From a virus (taxonomy: Duplodnaviria; Caudoviricetes): a DNA stretch of 64,000 nucleotides. Positions 4,201 through 29,118 of the stretch are shown one piece after another. The stretch is taken from the IMG/VR virus record IMGVR_UViG_3300047553_000177, positions 4,686 through 68,685 of that record, one strand, 5' to 3'. The position numbers and the translations under genes are program-made. Every line of letters begins with the position of its first letter. Within the stretch, counting starts at the first letter, position 1. Below the pieces are notes generated by a model that did not search any database, was not told the DNA's origin, and saw only the letters and a list, made by a program, of their open reading frames with translations.

Positions 4201-5912
4201 ATACATCTTACGGTGATGCTATAAATGCTAATGGGGAATCTAGAAATAAAGTTATCCCTATATTCTATGTAAATCCTTTAGATGAATCCTTAACAAGTAG
4301 AGATATAGCCAGTACAATTGCTCAGTTCTCTGGTATGGCTAATATGTTTAAAAGAAAGTCTGAGATCAATAGTGCTGTTGTGATGATGAGAGATGTGATA
4401 GAGAATAGAAAACCTCTAGAAGTAAACTCTGCTAATATCCCAATAGTAAATAAAATAGGTAAGAGACTTGGGTTTGTTAAACATGAAACTAAAGAAGGAG
4501 TAGATAATAATTTTAAACATTTATCTGAGTGGATTGACTCAATCTTCTATGGTGAAAAAGATTTAAAAGAATCTCTTAACATATTTGGTAAAGAAATATC
4601 TGCAGCTAAAGTTGCTAACAAACTTGCTTCTTTTACTGCTTTAAATACATTAGCATTAAACTTATTACAATCAACTAATCAGTTCTTAATAGATAATGTA
4701 AGGTTAGTAGAAGAAGGTGTTGCTGGTCAATTTATGTCAAAGGAAAATTTAGCTTATGCTAAAAAGATGTATTATCTAAGTGCTAATGGTGGACTATCTA
4801 CACTTAAAGATTTTGATTCCTTCTCCCCAGAAAGTAAAGTTGTACAAGCTATACAATATTTTGATGCATTAGGGGAATCATTAAGTATCTCAGAAACTAG
4901 ACAGACTGGCCCTAAAGCACTCAGAGCTGTAAATGATATTCCTATGGGGCTTCAAAAAATAGCTGAACATGAAACAGCTGTTACAAGAATGTTTGGAGTA
5001 CTTGATAGCTATAAAGGAAAACTCAAAGACAAGGATGGGAATGTAATTAAAAATGAACAAGGAGAAGATGCTAATCTTTGGGATGTGTTCATTAAAAATG
5101 AAGCTACAGGTTTATTTGAAATAGACCCTAGAGTAGCTAACGTAAAAAAGATAGAGGTAATCAATAGATTATCTGGACTGACTAAGAAAACAAACCAGAT
5201 TAAAACTGACTTTGATAATGCTATGCTTCAAAGAAGAGCAGGGGGAAAACTTTTAATGCTCTTCCGTAGATACTTTGTACCAGCATTGAGAAGAAACTTT
5301 GGACACAACGGGCTTCGTGGAGGAGTTCATCGTGACTTAGAATTAGGTACTATATCAGAAGGTATGTTCTCTACATTTGGCAGGTATATAAAAGAAACAT
5401 TTAGTAAGCAGGGTGGAAGAATGAATTTTGTATCTGTATATAAAATGATGGAAGACTTTGAGAAGCAGAACATGAAGAGAATGTCTGTTCAAATAGGATT
5501 CTTTATACTCTGCTCATTAATAATAATGTCTCTATCTGGAGATGACGATGATGATAATGGATATTGGGAATCGTTTATGTTATACCAAGCTTTACGTATG
5601 AATTCTGAATTAACACAATTCATCAACCCATCAGAATTCTTAAAGCTTGCATTATCCCCAACTGCTACTGCTCGTCCTTTACAAAGAGCTATAGATTTAT
5701 TCCATCAAGTTTGGACTACAGGTATGGGACATCTTACTGGAGATCCAGATGGATTATATTATGAAAGAAGATCTGGTATCCATGAAAAAGGAGATAGTAA
5801 ATTAATTGCAAAAGCAACTAAGCTTCTACCAATAATAGGTGGATTAGAAAAATCTTCTGATCCAGAAACAGCAGCAAGCTGGTTTGATTTAGGAGCTGGT
5901 AATACAAAATAG
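1242..5912 (+). CDS. giant virion cargo/ejection protein with zincin-like metallopeptidase domain
   Basis: 1556 aa. HExxH motif (THIHEFAHIL) with a downstream Glu (FEVLVTAIG), long helical regions, last gene of the + strand cargo cluster. Confidence 0.65.
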   Translation: MACYFLKIDKNGQIRQSPVHTRVIQYLDNKIRNNEQILGTDVQSILVDAGIMGLFVSKVNISDGLDNIQDIVELNAILEFNYGAKGSAIRLTPVEGKRGLEIIAQIDENVLNQISPVAAPTFSSERYAYEFAMEQKIRSEGWISPVIQYTGDPRVKVIADPQAIVKMPNEVARNTKPVFNPSLLDIAIEESKVTKERVASILARLEQDAKDSRVIDANETRVAIDDISGQINKMKTAFEKAGVPVQIDIDTDLEVKGRVINEKGKILTIKLNPVLMTEDTHIHEFAHILIDLLGEDNPVVARALKEVRNTNLYDKVREKYPELDPKQLDFEVLVTAIGLAGAKFNRNNPNKLQQLVNRLLRALSKVFGLESNTSAVEELAQSLLQGRIDKSMFEGKTISFLMADSKQSVDENKKKFEEILQDSRIAIEESIAKIKRKGESADLKAAARLEVLQKRLETAKEVEDFKEFIEYGFHLANRAKDVINDVFEQYSENPEMLSGEQRLEMMHKLQTVGEYVSDFFGAKDPRNSVMGKIHDLIDYKVSMLEGSEDIESNPEFLKLTAIEQKISKAVMNMNKVANKYTKAGIPILVDLLMEYNRPEINDQIDNAIENIKNNQRLIAIEQDAEYFEIKRLQKEKKYSSDKDENDRKAFEALLALNMEQLANKKITRQTLIRELTEAQKDKSAFSYLVDPIIYSSQVGLQMFATMLKDKMYQANDDTREDISKISKAYQAYEKIMGLGIDPNKFNEKILEVHSYRVFNHETGKMEDMRVLSFVQPYDVTRYKSEEQKMYNDLGKTHNKPGETATDEEFSKWAKSSEGKAYYKDVANWYKNNSVPSESAKAELQKLLNEKSAIKNLLEQAKKTKKTDLIAHYEMEFSLINSMISKIYDPVYKQFKYTAVRPNDKYVNPKYANMDAASKEYHAALLDLYKEKQKTLGKGSNQIRNSWDTFSYIVPAVRSTGLEKVQKDGAYSAARDAVKNTFEFLSTDTSYGDAINANGESRNKVIPIFYVNPLDESLTSRDIASTIAQFSGMANMFKRKSEINSAVVMMRDVIENRKPLEVNSANIPIVNKIGKRLGFVKHETKEGVDNNFKHLSEWIDSIFYGEKDLKESLNIFGKEISAAKVANKLASFTALNTLALNLLQSTNQFLIDNVRLVEEGVAGQFMSKENLAYAKKMYYLSANGGLSTLKDFDSFSPESKVVQAIQYFDALGESLSISETRQTGPKALRAVNDIPMGLQKIAEHETAVTRMFGVLDSYKGKLKDKDGNVIKNEQGEDANLWDVFIKNEATGLFEIDPRVANVKKIEVINRLSGLTKKTNQIKTDFDNAMLQRRAGGKLLMLFRRYFVPALRRNFGHNGLRGGVHRDLELGTISEGMFSTFGRYIKETFSKQGGRMNFVSVYKMMEDFEKQNMKRMSVQIGFFILCSLIIMSLSGDDDDDNGYWESFMLYQALRMNSELTQFINPSEFLKLALSPTATARPLQRAIDLFHQVWTTGMGHLTGDPDGLYYERRSGIHEKGDSKLIAKATKLLPIIGGLEKSSDPETAASWFDLGAGNTK

Positions 5913-14239: not shown

Positions 14240-15219
14240 GGTAATTGTATTTTAACTATCATATAAGCTATATCTTGTCCATTATTTTTAATGAAGTCCG
14301 ATATATCTTTAGATTTATAGTGAGCTGGCAAAATTACATTAATAAGATTAAACTCTGAACAAATTTTATTAGCCATCATTTGGCCTGGATTATTTTCTTT
14401 TTCATAATCATTATCATATAATACAGCTACAGTTTTAAATCTTTCCTTTAGATTATCTATCAGTGTCTTACTGGGCATCTGCATCTCACTCTGTAAAGCT
14501 ATTGCTTGATACCCCAATACATTAAGACACATAACATCTTTGAGAGATGAAGCAAGTATAACTAACTCTCCTTTATCCACCAACTGATCCCATCCTTGTA
14601 TATCTTCTTTAGTTGTGTTACTAAACCACTTACCATCAATTTCATATGGTCTGTAGATTTTATAACGACCACCCAAATTATATACATAACTAGGAGTGTG
14701 ACATGTATAACGTGCTTCATTTATCCAAAAGTAATCTATAGGTTGAACATTAAATTTAATTAACAGTGAACGAGGGATGTTAAATTGAGACCAGAAATTT
14801 TTATCTTCTTGATTCCACTCTCTTGCTCTCTTCTGAATTTTAACTGGCCTCTTCTCAACATAAACAGGATCTCCATAAGTAAGCTCAATAGCAACTTTGT
14901 TAACCACCCCACGTTGCAATCCCAACCCAAAGTCAGTATCTATTACTTTAAGAGCTTCTGAATATGTCAAGCCATATTTTCTTTGAATGTATGAGAAACA
15001 ATCATGACTCTCCCCACTACCAAAGTCCTTATACAACAACTTATTATTCCAATACACAATAGAACAGGTAGGATTATTGTCTAATCTTAACTCACTGCAG
15101 AATTTCTCATTCAAGTTCTTGAAATTATGGCAATAGTATCTGAATATATCATACTCAGAGATTTGACATAAGATAGCATCCTTATGCAAATATGCTTCAC
15201 TACTTCTCGACTCAATCAT
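14236..15219 (-). CDS. DNA primase (crAss-type DnaG/TOPRIM)
   Basis: SELRLDNNPTC..YKDFG N-terminal domain, SSLKDVM, YDND and KDISD TOPRIM-like motifs. Confidence 0.85.
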   Translation of the reverse strand: MIESRSSEAYLHKDAILCQISEYDIFRYYCHNFKNLNEKFCSELRLDNNPTCSIVYWNNKLLYKDFGSGESHDCFSYIQRKYGLTYSEALKVIDTDFGLGLQRGVVNKVAIELTYGDPVYVEKRPVKIQKRAREWNQEDKNFWSQFNIPRSLLIKFNVQPIDYFWINEARYTCHTPSYVYNLGGRYKIYRPYEIDGKWFSNTTKEDIQGWDQLVDKGELVILASSLKDVMCLNVLGYQAIALQSEMQMPSKTLIDNLKERFKTVAVLYDNDYEKENNPGQMMANKICSEFNLINVILPAHYKSKDISDFIKNNGQDIAYMIVKIQLP

Positions 15220-25929: not shown

Positions 25930-25967
25930 CAAAAGTAAAAGAATCTAGGGGAAATTAATCCCCTAGA
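25930..25967 (-). terminator. intrinsic terminator
   Basis: TCTAGGGGA-N6-TCCCCTAGA 9-bp hairpin followed by a T-rich tract on the - strand. Confidence 0.7.
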
Positions 25968-26017: not shown

Positions 26018-26602
26018 CTAGTTATTGATTTCTCCTGTTATTACAGACGTAGCTGTAACTGCTTTAGAGCCATCCATTGGCAAGAACACATGAGCTGCTT
26101 TATCTAAGCAAATCGTAGTGTTAGCAAAGATGTGTTTGCCATTGTGATAGCAATACTCACCGTCTTTACCTTTACGTTTAGCACTTGTTTCCAAGTTAGC
26201 TAATTGATACTCAGTACCTTCGGTGGTCTCAAGAACCTGTACTTTAATGTTTCGTGGAGTACCACTGATATTAGCTACAGGATTTAAAACATTAAGTTGT
26301 AATGTTTCTCTTCCGTAACTGTCAGTAACCCAGTCAGCATTATCTGACATGTCAATGCCAAATACATTGTAGACATCAGCAACAGCTGCTGTCATCCATG
26401 CTCGTCTTGCTCCACCTTGTGAGAAACGTGGATCACTAGCATTTAATAGTGCCAATAGATTTACAGAATTAGATCCGTTTTCGAGAATCTCTGCAAATTC
26501 TAATTGAATTTTGTTACCAGCAACTTTCCTAGCCGATACCATCAAGGTCTGTCCAACCTGCAATCCCTGCAAGCTTCCAGAATTTAGAGTGTTTTTACTC
26601 AT
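26018..26602 (-). CDS. hypothetical early protein (194 aa)
   Basis: Likely ATG at 26602 (MSKNTLNSG) after an A-rich leader. Followed by a terminator. Confidence 0.7.
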   Translation of the reverse strand: MSKNTLNSGSLQGLQVGQTLMVSARKVAGNKIQLEFAEILENGSNSVNLLALLNASDPRFSQGGARRAWMTAAVADVYNVFGIDMSDNADWVTDSYGRETLQLNVLNPVANISGTPRNIKVQVLETTEGTEYQLANLETSAKRKGKDGEYCYHNGKHIFANTTICLDKAAHVFLPMDGSKAVTATSVITGEINN

Positions 26603-26640
26603 GATTTTTATATGTGATTTATGTAAATCCAAGATTAAAT

Positions 26641-26765
26641 AACATTGCAGCAGACAAACCCTTCATGATGGCCCATTGCCATTCTTTTTAGCTGTCTATT
26701 CTGTGCACAAATAACTATCTCTACTATAACTTTTCTTGAGGATTCGAGATAGATGCTGCAATGTT
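26641..26765 (-). ncRNA. putative four-way-junction RNA
   Basis: Perfect 12-bp closing stem AACATTGCAGCA/TGCTGCAATGTT enclosing CTATCTC/GAGATAG, TATTTGT/ACAGAATA and GACAG/TTGTC (with an inner ATGGC/GCCAT) arms. Strand inferred from context. Confidence 0.5.
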
Positions 26766-26897
26766 GTACCCCTCTGCACTCAGTTGTAATACTTCATAGC
26801 CTATAGACCACAAATAAATTGTGTATGGAATAATTCTTACATACTTCATATTACAAACTGCTCACCCTTGGGAAGTGAGTTATGGTGCATTAGCAAA
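26764..26897 (-). ncRNA. twister-like self-cleaving ribozyme, copy A (type P1, long P5)
   Basis: U^AA-UGCAC-C..CUCACU-UCCCAAG-GGUGAG-P5-A-GUGCA-GAGGG-GUAC. Matches the twister core order and covaries with copy B. P1 is weak. Confidence 0.68.
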
Positions 26898-26922
26898 GCA
26901 GTTTATACACTTGCTTAGGTGT
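26896..26922 (-). ncRNA. compact H-type pseudoknot between the ribozymes
   Basis: ACAC-CU-AAGCA-A-GUGU-AUAAAC-UGCUU: S1 ACAC/GUGU, S2 AAGCA/UGCUU. Confidence 0.5.
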
Positions 26923-27078
26923 TTGTACCACTCTGCATTCAGTGTAACACACTTGCCCTCCAACCGTCATAGTAATTTACTATTAGGGTAACAGTAATCT
27001 GCAAGCTCTATTCCTGTTCACGCTACCTGTGTTACACTGCCAACCCTTGTGAAGTTGGAATGATGCATTAATACAAAC
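26921..27078 (-). ncRNA. twister-like self-cleaving ribozyme, copy B (type P1, long P5)
   Basis: P1 GUUUGUAU/GUACAAAC, U^AA, P2 UGCAU/AUGCA, P4 CCAACU/GGUUGG, L4 UCACAAG, T1 CAC/GUG after GA, P5 CAGUGUAACAC/GUGUUACACUG. Confidence 0.72.
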
Positions 27079-27136
27079 CAACAACATCTCAGTCGAAAGA
27101 CTTGTATCGACAAATCAGACCTTGATGCTGTTGGTT
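27076..27136 (-). ncRNA. three-way-junction RNA element
   Basis: 13-bp stem AACCAACAGCAUC/GAUGUUGUUGGUU, continuous on the - strand, with two small hairpins (UUGU/ACAA, AGUC/GACU). Confidence 0.5.
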
Positions 27137-27141
27137 AATGA

Positions 27142-27240
27142 TTATAAAACTGGTGACATTAGGAAACAAAGTATAACAAACAACCAGATAGTTGTTGATA
27201 TAGTAGCTCCTAATATGAATGACTTCTCTTCTGTTTTCAT
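27142..27240 (-). CDS. 32-aa hydrophobic peptide (not in the ORF track)
   Basis: MKTEEKSFILGATISTTIWLFVILCFLMSPVL, a single TM helix. Confidence 0.5.
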   Translation of the reverse strand: MKTEEKSFILGATISTTIWLFVILCFLMSPVL

Positions 27241-27265
27241 AACAATGTGTTATAAAGTTTAGATG

Positions 27266-27296
27266 GACTAATTTGTAGGCATTAGTCTGATTGCCT
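27266..27296 (-). ncRNA. H-type pseudoknot
   Basis: AGGCA-AUCA-GACUAA-UGCCU-ACAAA-UUAGUC: perfect 5-bp and 6-bp stems, A-rich loop 3. Confidence 0.55.
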
Positions 27297-27384
27297 TGAA
27301 AGGGTTGTGGAGATCCTGGTAATCAATTACTTAACAACGAAGTGATGATTATTCCCTATATCCCCTGGGTCCCGAAGGAACTCC

Positions 27385-27543
27385 TTAGAGGAGTCCTTCA
27401 GTTGTGGCCCATTCCACAGCAGCATCAAACTGCACATGGTCAGCTGGGACCCATAGCATGTCTTCCTTTGGCATCTTGCCAGATTGGAATACGATCTTGC
27501 CTGACTTAATCAAAAGTCCTTTAGGTGTAAGATAAGCTTTCAT
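27385..27543 (-). CDS. first early gene, 52-aa hypothetical protein
   Basis: Likely ATG at 27543 (MKAYLTPKGLLIKSG). Higher GC than its surroundings. Confidence 0.55.
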   Translation of the reverse strand: MKAYLTPKGLLIKSGKIVFQSGKMPKEDMLWVPADHVQFDAAVEWATTEGLL

Positions 27544-28150: not shown

Positions 28151-28158
28151 TATATTTG
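28151..28158 (+). promoter_or_regulatory. TAnnTTTG -7 promoter element
   Basis: TATATTTG, 4 nt before the ATG at 28163. Confidence 0.65.
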
Positions 28159-28162
28159 TCAA

Positions 28163-28312
28163 ATGAGACAAGAGGAGTTTTTATTTTTAAGATCACAGGT
28201 TAGAGCATTTCACCCTGACTGGACTGACGAACAAGTTAATGAGGAGTGCAACAAAATCTTATCTGGGGAGTATAATGAAAATGAAGACTCTTGTTTATAT
28301 TGTGGAAGCTAA
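28163..28312 (+). CDS. 49-aa acidic protein with C-terminal CxxCGS (not in the ORF track)
   Basis: MRQEEFLFLRSQVRAFHPDWTDEQVNEECNKILSGEYNENEDSCLYCGS, with its own promoter. Confidence 0.65.
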   Translation: MRQEEFLFLRSQVRAFHPDWTDEQVNEECNKILSGEYNENEDSCLYCGS

Positions 28313-28324
28313 ACCAAAAATGCT

Positions 28325-28492
28325 ATGAAATTTCAAACATTCTCTTACAAGACCTATGGAACTAAAAAGTTCGGGGTTATGTTCTATTCTAACCTTAAAG
28401 GGTATGGAGTAAAAGTATACTTCAATAGGACTGTGGGGGTATTAATTTTAGAAACAAATGGCAAAAGTAAAACAAACACAGACAACGTTTAA
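28325..28492 (+). CDS. 55-aa hypothetical protein (not in the ORF track)
   Basis: MKFQTFSYKTYG...NTDNV, fills the gap between two small ORFs. Confidence 0.45.
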   Translation: MKFQTFSYKTYGTKKFGVMFYSNLKGYGVKVYFNRTVGVLILETNGKSKTNTDNV

Positions 28493-28595
28493 AGCTAAAC
28501 CAAAAGTTAAGAGACCTGGGATTCATGCTAAAACTAAACACTCAAAGTTGAAAACTTCTAAGCATTATCACAAACTTTCAGTTGGACAAGGGTAA
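28458..28595 (+). CDS. 45-aa highly basic protein (not in the ORF track)
   Basis: MAKVKQTQTTFKAKPKVKRPGIHAKTKHSKLKTSKHYHKLSVGQG. Confidence 0.65.
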   Translation: MAKVKQTQTTFKAKPKVKRPGIHAKTKHSKLKTSKHYHKLSVGQG

Positions 28596-28605
28596 TAAAT
28601 TTAAC

Positions 28606-28613
28606 TATATTTG
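28606..28613 (+). promoter_or_regulatory. TAnnTTTG -7 promoter element driving a non-coding region
   Basis: TATATTTG, 4 nt before the start of a closing helix. No downstream ATG ORF. Confidence 0.6.
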
Positions 28614-28617
28614 CATC

Positions 28618-28862
28618 TGCAACCGTAATCCTAAACGATCACCCCTGAGGTAACCAAAGTAGGGGGTCAGAAGTCGGGTTCTATTTCTATCGACATAGTT
28701 AGAAAAAGTTGTCCCCGATAGTTGCAAAAATGGAATTGATATAAGATACTGGGGAGGGTTAAAACTATAGGCTGACAGAAATGTTCCTCCGAAGGCTAAA
28801 GACGGCAGTAATCTAAAGGTCAATTTAAAACACAAAAAATTCCAAGGGGATAGGTGTATCCA
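28618..28862 (+). ncRNA. putative structured ncRNA of about 245 nt
   Basis: Helices TGCAAC/GTTGCA, CCCCT/AGGGG, TCGGG/CCCGA, TGGAATT/AATTCCA, GGAGG/CCTCC, GGATA/TATCC. GC-richer than its flanks and has its own promoter. Confidence 0.55.
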
Positions 28863-28890
28863 ATCGATAAATTTTATAATTTAGCAGAAT

Positions 28891-29118
28891 ATGCCTACTT
28901 ACATTCAAACTGGGATTTATCAGCCTCCCTTCACAAAAGAAGAAGACTCTGAGCAAGCAGTCGTTTATATTGATGACAAAGTCATTCAAATACTAGACGA
29001 TAAAGATGAGCTCGTTGTACAATTCACATATGAAGAGCTTAGAGGCATCATGGCCATCATGGCTGCTGAACAAGAGAAATCTCATTTGTGGATACAGGCT
29101 ATAGCTAGAAATAACTAA
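28891..29118 (+). CDS. hypothetical protein
   Basis: 75 aa. TAATG coupling to the next gene. Confidence 0.6.
   Translation: MPTYIQTGIYQPPFTKEEDSEQAVVYIDDKVIQILDDKDELVVQFTYEELRGIMAIMAAEQEKSHLWIQAIARNN

Follow-up and report, generated by a model that had tools for sequence, protein, structure and literature searches.

What do two diverged repeats in an early intergenic spacer of an uncultured phage encode, and what would they do to the message that carries them? The spacer lies in a 64,000-nt stretch (the window; positions 4,686 to 68,685 of IMG/VR record IMGVR_UViG_3300047553_000177, Caudoviricetes). The record is that of an uncultured virus of 68.7 kb, linear and estimated to be 85% complete. 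Both repeats were contained in a 750-nt spacer on the minus strand, which follows a 76-codon frame (end at 27385) and precedes a 204-amino acid (aa) gene (start at 26632). They are probably genuine members of the twister class of self-cleaving ribozymes, reportedly the class of Roth et al. 2014, in a phage subfamily that Rfam lacks, and would cut the early message co-transcriptionally. All positions given below are those of the window unless a locus is named.

Two diverged copies of one motif

The minus strand at 27078-26921 and 26900-26761 held two diverged copies of one motif. The shared order was P1, UAA, P2, P4 with a 9-nt loop (L4), a long P5 arm, P2', GA, three pseudoknot bases and P1'. 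An earlier note on the window, made from its letters alone, had described two twister-like copies in this order. Sequence reading and a family covariance model (R1) agreed with that description, and the coordinates and both U^A positions given at the time were correct. The compensatory differences that it listed in the first pseudoknot (T1), the fifth P2 pair and P4 were all present in the two copies. Its unrelated P5 inserts, each closed by a helix, corresponded to arms of 98 and 78 nt in which folding recovered P5.

The 17-nt 3' motif was found twice in the window versus 0.01 times expected, and none of 100 shuffles contained it two or more times. The 12-nt loop motif alone was not significant, with two occurrences in the window versus 0.73 expected and at least two in 17 of 100 shuffles. 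R1, trained on 46 sequences that included copy 2 and excluded copy 1, scored copy 2 at 104.1 bits (E 2.6e-27) and copy 1 at 81.4 bits (E 8.3e-21). The next best match in the 64 kb (14478-14532, 14.8 bits) was without P4, L4 and P5 and was rejected as chance. Minimum-energy folds recovered P2, P4 and P5 in both copies, with folding energies that were ordinary against shuffles (z of -1.7 for copy 1 and -1.0 for copy 2).

Family size and covariation

The family to which both copies belong is large and occurs in contigs of uncultured phages. In IMG/VR contigs, one pattern scan gave at least 119 stretches and a second gave 110. A script found 86 distinct complete units, and the 46 units of at most 150 nt formed alignment A2. 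The proposed structure, including T1 and a single pair in the second pseudoknot (T2), had 91.9% of its cells paired in A2 versus 80.8% in column shuffles, with changes on both sides in 18 of 28 pairs; the observed values were reached by none of 500 shuffles. Only 28-53% of cells were paired when the partner was shifted by one to three columns. P2 was 100% paired, P4 was 99.1% paired with all five pairs covarying, and P1 was 70% paired with changes on both sides in five of its six pairs.

When R1, as a new covariance model, was run against 225 fetched loci, 178 matches were obtained at E<0.001 in 139 loci, and 162 of these were distinct. The expectation that homologues would keep the T1, P2 and P4 covariation held across the distinct matches. 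From one T1 pair to the next, counts were C-G 139 and U-A 1, C-G 124 and A-U 18, and C-G 143 and A-U 4. The third P2 pair was C-G in 142 matches, U-A in 4 and U-G in 8, and the fifth was C-G in 114, U-A in 25 and U-G in 5, with 7 non-pairs. Three to four pair types occurred at each of the five P4 pairs. Changes in T1 and in the fifth P2 pair were present in all four combinations (102, 14, 10 and 4 matches) and are therefore separate, independent events. The covarying positions had been left free in the fetching patterns, hence these counts are unbiased.

The UAA was kept in 153 (U), 156 (A) and 153 (A) of the 162 matches, the G and A after P2' in 153 and 158, and the adenines that could form the A-A contact in 153 (loop) and 158 (3' side), but these plain conservation counts are inflated, as the patterns fix most core letters. 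Judged by these letters, all features around the active site appear to be kept in the family.

Approximately 28 of the 162 matches were irregular or decayed, without the 5' half or the loop; not every family copy is functional.

Two irregular forms stood out. One was recurrent: P2 and P4 had lost their 5' strand, whereas P4', P5 and everything in the 3' half were kept. In the other, a short hairpin loop replaced the T1/T2 loop. Examples of irregular forms (L150:1685-1818, L167:465-606 and L143:13073-13241) may be decayed copies or a different arrangement.

Architecture compared with the canonical twister

The canonical twister, as set out in part of PMC5408937, has three essential stems, with P0, P3 and P5 optional. 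In the same passages P2 is four Watson-Crick pairs, and T1 is three Watson-Crick pairs plus an A-A pair. For T2, a conserved GC dinucleotide of L2 pairs with two L4 nucleotides that are bulged out; on either side of these two, P4 is extended by an invariant G-C pair and by a U-A trans pair. T2 stacks between P2 and P3 and is ranked there as the most critical tertiary contact.

The phage units had P1, P2 and P4 in twister order around L1 and L4, and all three T1 pairs covaried over the 162 matches. The cut-site U-A next to P1, the conserved adenines and the G after P2' were present in both copies, most such letters being fixed by the patterns in the family counts. P2 did not have the canonical four pairs, as a covarying fifth pair was present. 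The canonical T2 GC was absent; in its place, a single C conserved in 144 of 162 matches faced a loop G conserved in 153, and neither showed variation. A possible second T2 pair, between position 16 and the last loop G, was C-G in 115 matches and U-G in 27, but position 16 covaried with position 144 instead.

The 5-bp P2 of the earlier note is thus supported by a fifth pair that covaries independently of T1, and this pair and the loss of the GC are real departures from the canonical twister. A single-pair T2 is plausible; the invariant last loop G could instead pair with position 16, which would give a two-pair T2. If the U and the G at the two ends of the loop pair like the canonical G-C, a single G is left bulged for T2. 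The length of the P2-T2 stack would then be kept (5+1 versus 4+2 pairs), one pair having apparently moved from T2 to P2. This model, which is that of the earlier note, is coherent.

The closest known form was the type-P1 twister of Rfam (twister-P1, RF03160). The phage family shares with it the order P1-UAA-P2-(L2)-P4-L4-P4'-(P5)-P2'-GA-GGG-P1', a three-pair T1 between L4 and the 3' strand, the adenines of the A-A contact, U^A after P1 and G after P2'. Further likenesses were a variable, sometimes near-absent P1 and an intergenic, phage-associated location close to other ribozyme classes. It differs from RF03160 in the fifth covarying P2 pair, in the single C that replaces the L2 GC, and in an L4 that ends GG, without the canonical ...GC-C ending. 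In addition, the base helix of P5 is conserved in sequence in the phage family, with an interior of 20-407 nt. The family was found only in uncultured phage contigs and contigs of metagenome-assembled genomes (MAGs), and blastn of 26600-27250 against 50,697 GenBank phage records gave no match.

The twister-sister ribozyme (RF02681) has vaguely similar loop letters and helical layout and is phage-associated too, but it cuts the opposite loop strand and has no pseudoknots (PMC5408937, in part). This identity was rejected: T1 covaries at three pairs, the UAA lies on the twister side, and RF02681 had no match in Rfam scans of the window, of the loci with short relatives or of 14 family loci.

Genomic context and companion ribozymes

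Family members are intergenic and co-directional with genes. Of the nearest open reading frames of at least 80 aa, 126 of 141 downstream and 120 of 139 upstream shared the strand of the family member, and only 13 of the 162 matches overlapped a same-strand frame.

In two of the 14 family loci scanned with Rfam, two tandem family members were closely preceded on their own strand by a Hatchet or a Pistol ribozyme. Hatchet and Pistol occupy the same kind of phage intergenic place as the twister family, although their folds and sequences are unrelated, and this neighborhood suggests an interchangeable "cut here" function. Passages of PMC6765202 likewise report bacterial twisters near phage genes and other ribozymes, and parts of PMC6765202 and PMC10085705 describe self-cleaving ribozyme classes as sharing locations.

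Among prokaryotes, with each species represented by one genome, the 5' half was limited to 12 contigs, all of MAG origin, and R1 confirmed 10 of these 12 loci. Five of the 12 contigs (four MAGs) were labeled Bacteroidota (Chitinophagaceae, Sediminibacterium and Bacteroidia) and the others were scattered. A Bacteroidota host is a mere hint, binning errors being likely.

Five metatranscriptome runs had small shares (0.08-0.11) of the stretch, and the four that were examined consisted of assembled Logan contigs. Contigs of these four runs matched only the conserved 5' and 3' ribozyme halves, with other P5 interiors between. Because only the conserved halves matched, the contigs belong to relatives and not to this phage.

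Other structured RNAs were observed in family loci. A freshwater-1 RNA was present at L032:8602-8663, with transfer RNAs (tRNAs) nearby. Downstream of family members and on the same strand were a full transfer-messenger RNA (tmRNA; L027:69-403, 100 bits) and a weak, sub-threshold alpha-tmRNA-like match (L158:3494-3643, 25.6 bits).

Table 1. Coordinates of the two twister-type units, their parts and neighboring features. Positions are in the window unless a locus is named.
Feature	Position	Strand	Description and basis
Twister-type ribozyme 1 (upstream copy), entire unit with P1	26921..27078	-	Sequence; R1 match 26920-27078 (scores in text); fold gives P2, P4 and P5
Copy 1 P1	27078-27071 with 26928-26921	-	8 pairs, the first G-U
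Copy 1 UAA	27070-27068	-
Predicted scissile U^A, ribozyme 1 (U27070, A27069)	27069..27070	-	UAA adjoins P1, matching the twister consensus (frame of the Rfam alignment; PMC5408937, in part)
Copy 1 P2	27067-27063 with 26938-26934	-	5 pairs
Copy 1 conserved C	27062	-	Followed by a 3-nt joiner to P4
Copy 1 P4	27058-27054 with 27044-27040	-	5 pairs
Copy 1 loop L4, 9 nt (UUCACAAGG)	27045..27053	-	G27046 is the proposed T2 partner of C27062
Copy 1 T1	27051-27049 with 26931-26929	-	Loop CAC with GUG; middle pair A-U
Copy 1 P5 arm	26941..27038	-	98 nt, one C after P4' and followed by GA before P2'; 10-pair closing helix; z -1.75
Copy 1 G-A after P2' (G26933, A26932)	26932..26933	-	G26933 at the place of the conserved catalytic guanine of twisters (role: PMC11662667 and PMC5408937, in part)
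Linker between the ribozymes	26902..26920	-	19 nt
Twister-type ribozyme 2 (downstream copy), weak 3-pair P1	26761..26900	-	R1 match 26761-26900 (scores in text); fold
Copy 2 P1	26895-26893 with 26769-26767	-	Only 3 pairs
Copy 2 outer helix	26901-26898 with 26759-26756	-	4 pairs
Copy 2 UAA	26892-26890	-
Predicted scissile U^A, ribozyme 2 (U26892, A26891)	26891..26892	-	Same basis as ribozyme 1
Copy 2 P2	26889-26885 with 26779-26775	-	Fifth pair C-G versus U-A in copy 1
Copy 2 conserved C	26884	-
Copy 2 P4	26879-26875 with 26865-26861	-	Sequence unlike copy 1 P4
Copy 2 loop L4, 9 nt (UUCCCAAGG)	26866..26874	-	G26867 is the proposed T2 partner of C26884
Copy 2 T1	26872-26870 with 26772-26770	-	3' side GGG; middle pair C-G
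Copy 2 P5 arm	26782..26859	-	78 nt, unrelated to copy 1 arm; z -1.02
Copy 2 G-A after P2'	26773..26774	-	G26774 at the catalytic-guanine place
Predicted 178-nt RNA if both sites are cut	26892..27069	-	5'-hydroxyl at A27069, 2',3'-cyclic phosphate at U26892; arithmetic from the two predicted sites
32-codon frame (upstream context)	27142..27240	-	Hydrophobic peptide; ends 64 nt before ribozyme 1; translation
204-aa gene (downstream context)	26018..26632	-	First gene past the ribozymes, function not assigned; matches neither Pfam nor PHROGs; related phage loci carry homologues
Hatchet (RF02678)	L020:6387-6553	same as family members	79.3 bits, above Rfam threshold
Pistol (RF02679)	L032:3922-3985	same as family members	57.1 bits, above Rfam threshold

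Proposed cleavage of the early message

Cleavage is predicted here from the observed anatomy, covariation and family context. Read in this way, the two units most likely serve to cut the early message that carries them while it is being transcribed, at 27070^27069 and 26892^26891. The simplest view is of a polycistronic message cut at its gene boundaries. The ribozymes would be transcribed within the minus-strand early and replication message, and each would fold during transcription into the double-pseudoknot twister core. The backbone would then be cut between the U and the first A of each UAA, at sites separated by 178 nt, and each cut would give the upstream piece a 2',3'-cyclic phosphate end and the downstream piece a 5'-hydroxyl end. 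The upstream transcript, with its small frames and the 32-codon peptide frame, would be parted from the downstream message of the 204-aa gene and then the replication genes. This downstream message would start with a 5'-hydroxyl and the compact folded body of ribozyme 2.

Published activities bear on individual parts of the units. In the portion of PMC5408937 that treats the stems, P1 is described as dispensable for twister cleavage, and the weak P1 of copy 2 may be tolerable for that reason. A large assay of natural twisters (PMC11662667, in part) reports that all twisters with a P5 stem-loop were active, that mutating the A after the cut site abolished activity and that an imperfect two-pair pseudoknot lowered it.

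Several points weigh against this reading, the inflated core counts and the irregular copies described above among them. An altered number of P2 pairs is suggested in part of PMC5408937 to disturb the active site. Because T2 is the most critical contact and imperfections in it lower activity (PMC5408937, PMC11662667), a T2 cut down to one pair could weaken or abolish activity. Any effect of the cuts on message stability or translation would be conjecture. The catalogue searches point the same way. Rfam at E≤10 on 26500-27400 gave no twister match to either copy, a 34-kb Rfam search of four loci with short relatives gave no twister, and RF03160 had no match in five related phage records. The family reached at most 18.8 bits with RF03160, by the shortest relative (E 0.055 in a 101-nt search), versus a gathering threshold of 67.2 bits.

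The alignment of RF03160 to this shortest relative covered only P1-UAA-P2 and P2'-GAGGG-P1'. The Infernal and Rfam check proposed in the earlier note therefore came out in part: the outer twister frame was aligned in a relative, far below threshold, but neither copy in the window was matched. The twister-class core assigned in that note, with UAA, the G-A after P2' and the loop adenines, was kept. Besides a tmRNA and a tRNA, the scans of the four loci gave a weak alpha-tmRNA-like match. At gathering thresholds, Rfam 15 gave no match in the window; two weak matches in the window at E≤10, to a long intergenic noncoding RNA model and a small nucleolar RNA model, were rejected as chance. Standard Rfam models miss this phage-borne twister form. 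No paper describing this phage subfamily was found, and the supplementary twister lists (Roth 2014; PMC11662667; PMC10085705) may include members.

Tandem layout, mobility and alternative explanations

Two to three matches were present in 35 of the 139 loci. All 39 neighboring pairs were on the same strand, and 18 of the 39 were at most 300 nt apart. R1 found one or two copies in related phage genomes, all in the same region. Related complete genomes had a single copy at this site, or a second one approximately 2 kb away behind the 204-aa gene. In some relatives the homologue of that gene was flanked by copies on both sides, the second directly behind it, and one relative had the two types in the opposite order. 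Because relatives differ in copy number, position and order, the tandem pair is not a conserved unit, and close relatives keep neither its layout nor the 178-nt product.

In other loci, units were joined directly. In L196 (unit at minus-strand offset 2543) and at L096:2086-2190, the 3' end of the unit runs into the next UAA with no P1 between, and RNA-library contigs from runs X1 and X2 had such a P1-less junction too.

The P5 arms were very diverse. Among 113 units with a measurable P5 interior, 78 interiors were unique and 35 fell into 15 small clusters, within which the same interior was joined to different P4 helices. The interior of copy 1 had no match in the other fetched loci, and that of copy 2 was in no viral contig other than locus L068. 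Both arms folded no better than shuffled sequence (z in Table 1).

It is possible, though unlikely, that the tandem pair serves to release cargo. The pair would excise a 178-nt RNA made of the ribozyme 1 body and its P5 arm, with 5'-hydroxyl and cyclic-phosphate ends, to act as a small RNA or as a circle closed by an RtcB-type ligase of the host, with the P5 arms as the cargo. Two same-strand cuts at this spacing would give such ends, going by the twister chemistry in part of PMC11662667. The frequency of tandem copies and the diverse arms, exchanged between P4 helices, would also fit. Against cargo release stand the lack of a conserved tandem layout in the closest relatives, arms that fold like shuffles and the near absence of the two arms elsewhere. 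No back-joined contig, as expected of a circle, was seen among the RNA contigs, which are a poor test. In engineered "Tornado" cassettes, two twisters flanking an RNA yield 5'-hydroxyl and cyclic-phosphate ends that can be joined by RtcB. The phage product differs in that it would be mostly ribozyme 1 itself and in that its tandem layout is not conserved.

The ribozyme units behave as recombining cassettes. L068:485-607, on a 9.4-kb piece of a 117-kb contig, was 97.6% identical to window positions 26768-26892 over the 125-nt copy 2 body, and the shared stretch runs from the U of UAA to just past T1. Comparison of L068 with the whole window by blastn and tblastx gave no match beyond this body. 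The likeness suggests that the ribozyme unit was recently transferred in the manner of a cassette, or was gene-converted.

Such units could also be selfish or neutral, spreading by recombination through their conserved cores and persisting because they are harmless in intergenic spacers rather than through any need of the phage for the cut. This explanation draws on the isolated L068 match, on the copy number and position that vary among close relatives, on the P5 interiors shared between different P4 helices and on the frequent decayed copies. It is improbable, as the strong purifying selection on the catalytic fold and the compensatory changes in T1, P2 and P4 indicate that cutting matters to something. 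Strict co-orientation with genes is expected of an element that needs transcription, and a niche common to Hatchet and Pistol suggests that a cut is needed there, by whichever class. On what the RNA does, neutral spread is compatible with self-cleavage of the early message.

A bolder proposal, also a long shot, joins mobility and release. The twister core would be a self-excising frame for hypervariable P5 cargo in mobile cassettes exchanged whole between unrelated phages, and tandem units would free RNAs with 5'-hydroxyl and cyclic-phosphate ends (178 nt here), possibly circularized, that act on the host or on rival phages.

It is very unlikely that the altered P2 and T2 mark a derivative that has lost self-cleavage and is now a stable structural leader or protein-binding element: the departure from the four-pair P2 and two-pair T2 held important for activity (PMC5408937 and PMC11662667, in part) and the very low Rfam scores would fit, but nucleotides needed only for catalysis (the A that follows the cut and the G that follows P2') are kept, T1 is maintained by covariation, and a P2 gain with a T2 loss that keeps the stack length looks like compensation and not decay.

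Surroundings of the ribozyme pair

Searches of nine neighboring frames against Pfam and PHROGs gave nothing useful, and a sigma-70 promoter and terminator scan found promoter-like sites no more often than in shuffles. Recoding (TAG as Q, and table 4) was considered for the gene-poor 26.6-28.9 kb and rejected, as no long frames emerged. A 41-codon frame at 26849-26724, which starts within the P5 arm of copy 2, was dismissed as a gene, since in L068 the arm is present without the remainder of the frame.

Around the 32-codon frame, the region 27036-27391 had 79.5% identity to L210. Directly behind the 204-aa gene, a 9-pair hairpin with a T-run was located at 25944-25967; at this place relatives (e.g., L037:2887-2957) have a short twister-family member in its stead. 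Farther upstream, approximately 980 nt at 28151-29107 had about 80% identity to the related phage loci L210, L209, L171, L195 and L130. This conserved stretch spans small plus-strand frames (28163-28595) and the region 28600-28890, which has no convincing frame on either strand.

Implications for phage twisters

The biological role of twisters in bacteria and phages is described as still open in parts of PMC6765202 and PMC5408937. The family is a large natural set of phage twisters that catalogue-based surveys would miss, in defined early-operon places, often in tandem and sometimes beside Hatchet or Pistol. It resembles a natural experiment on the twister fold, relevant to the view that a set P2 length and an intact T2 are indispensable. 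Should activity be confirmed, a new sub-model would be required in Rfam and in the descriptors used for twister searches, and transcript maps of freshwater phages, possibly of Bacteroidota, would have to include ribozyme-made ends.

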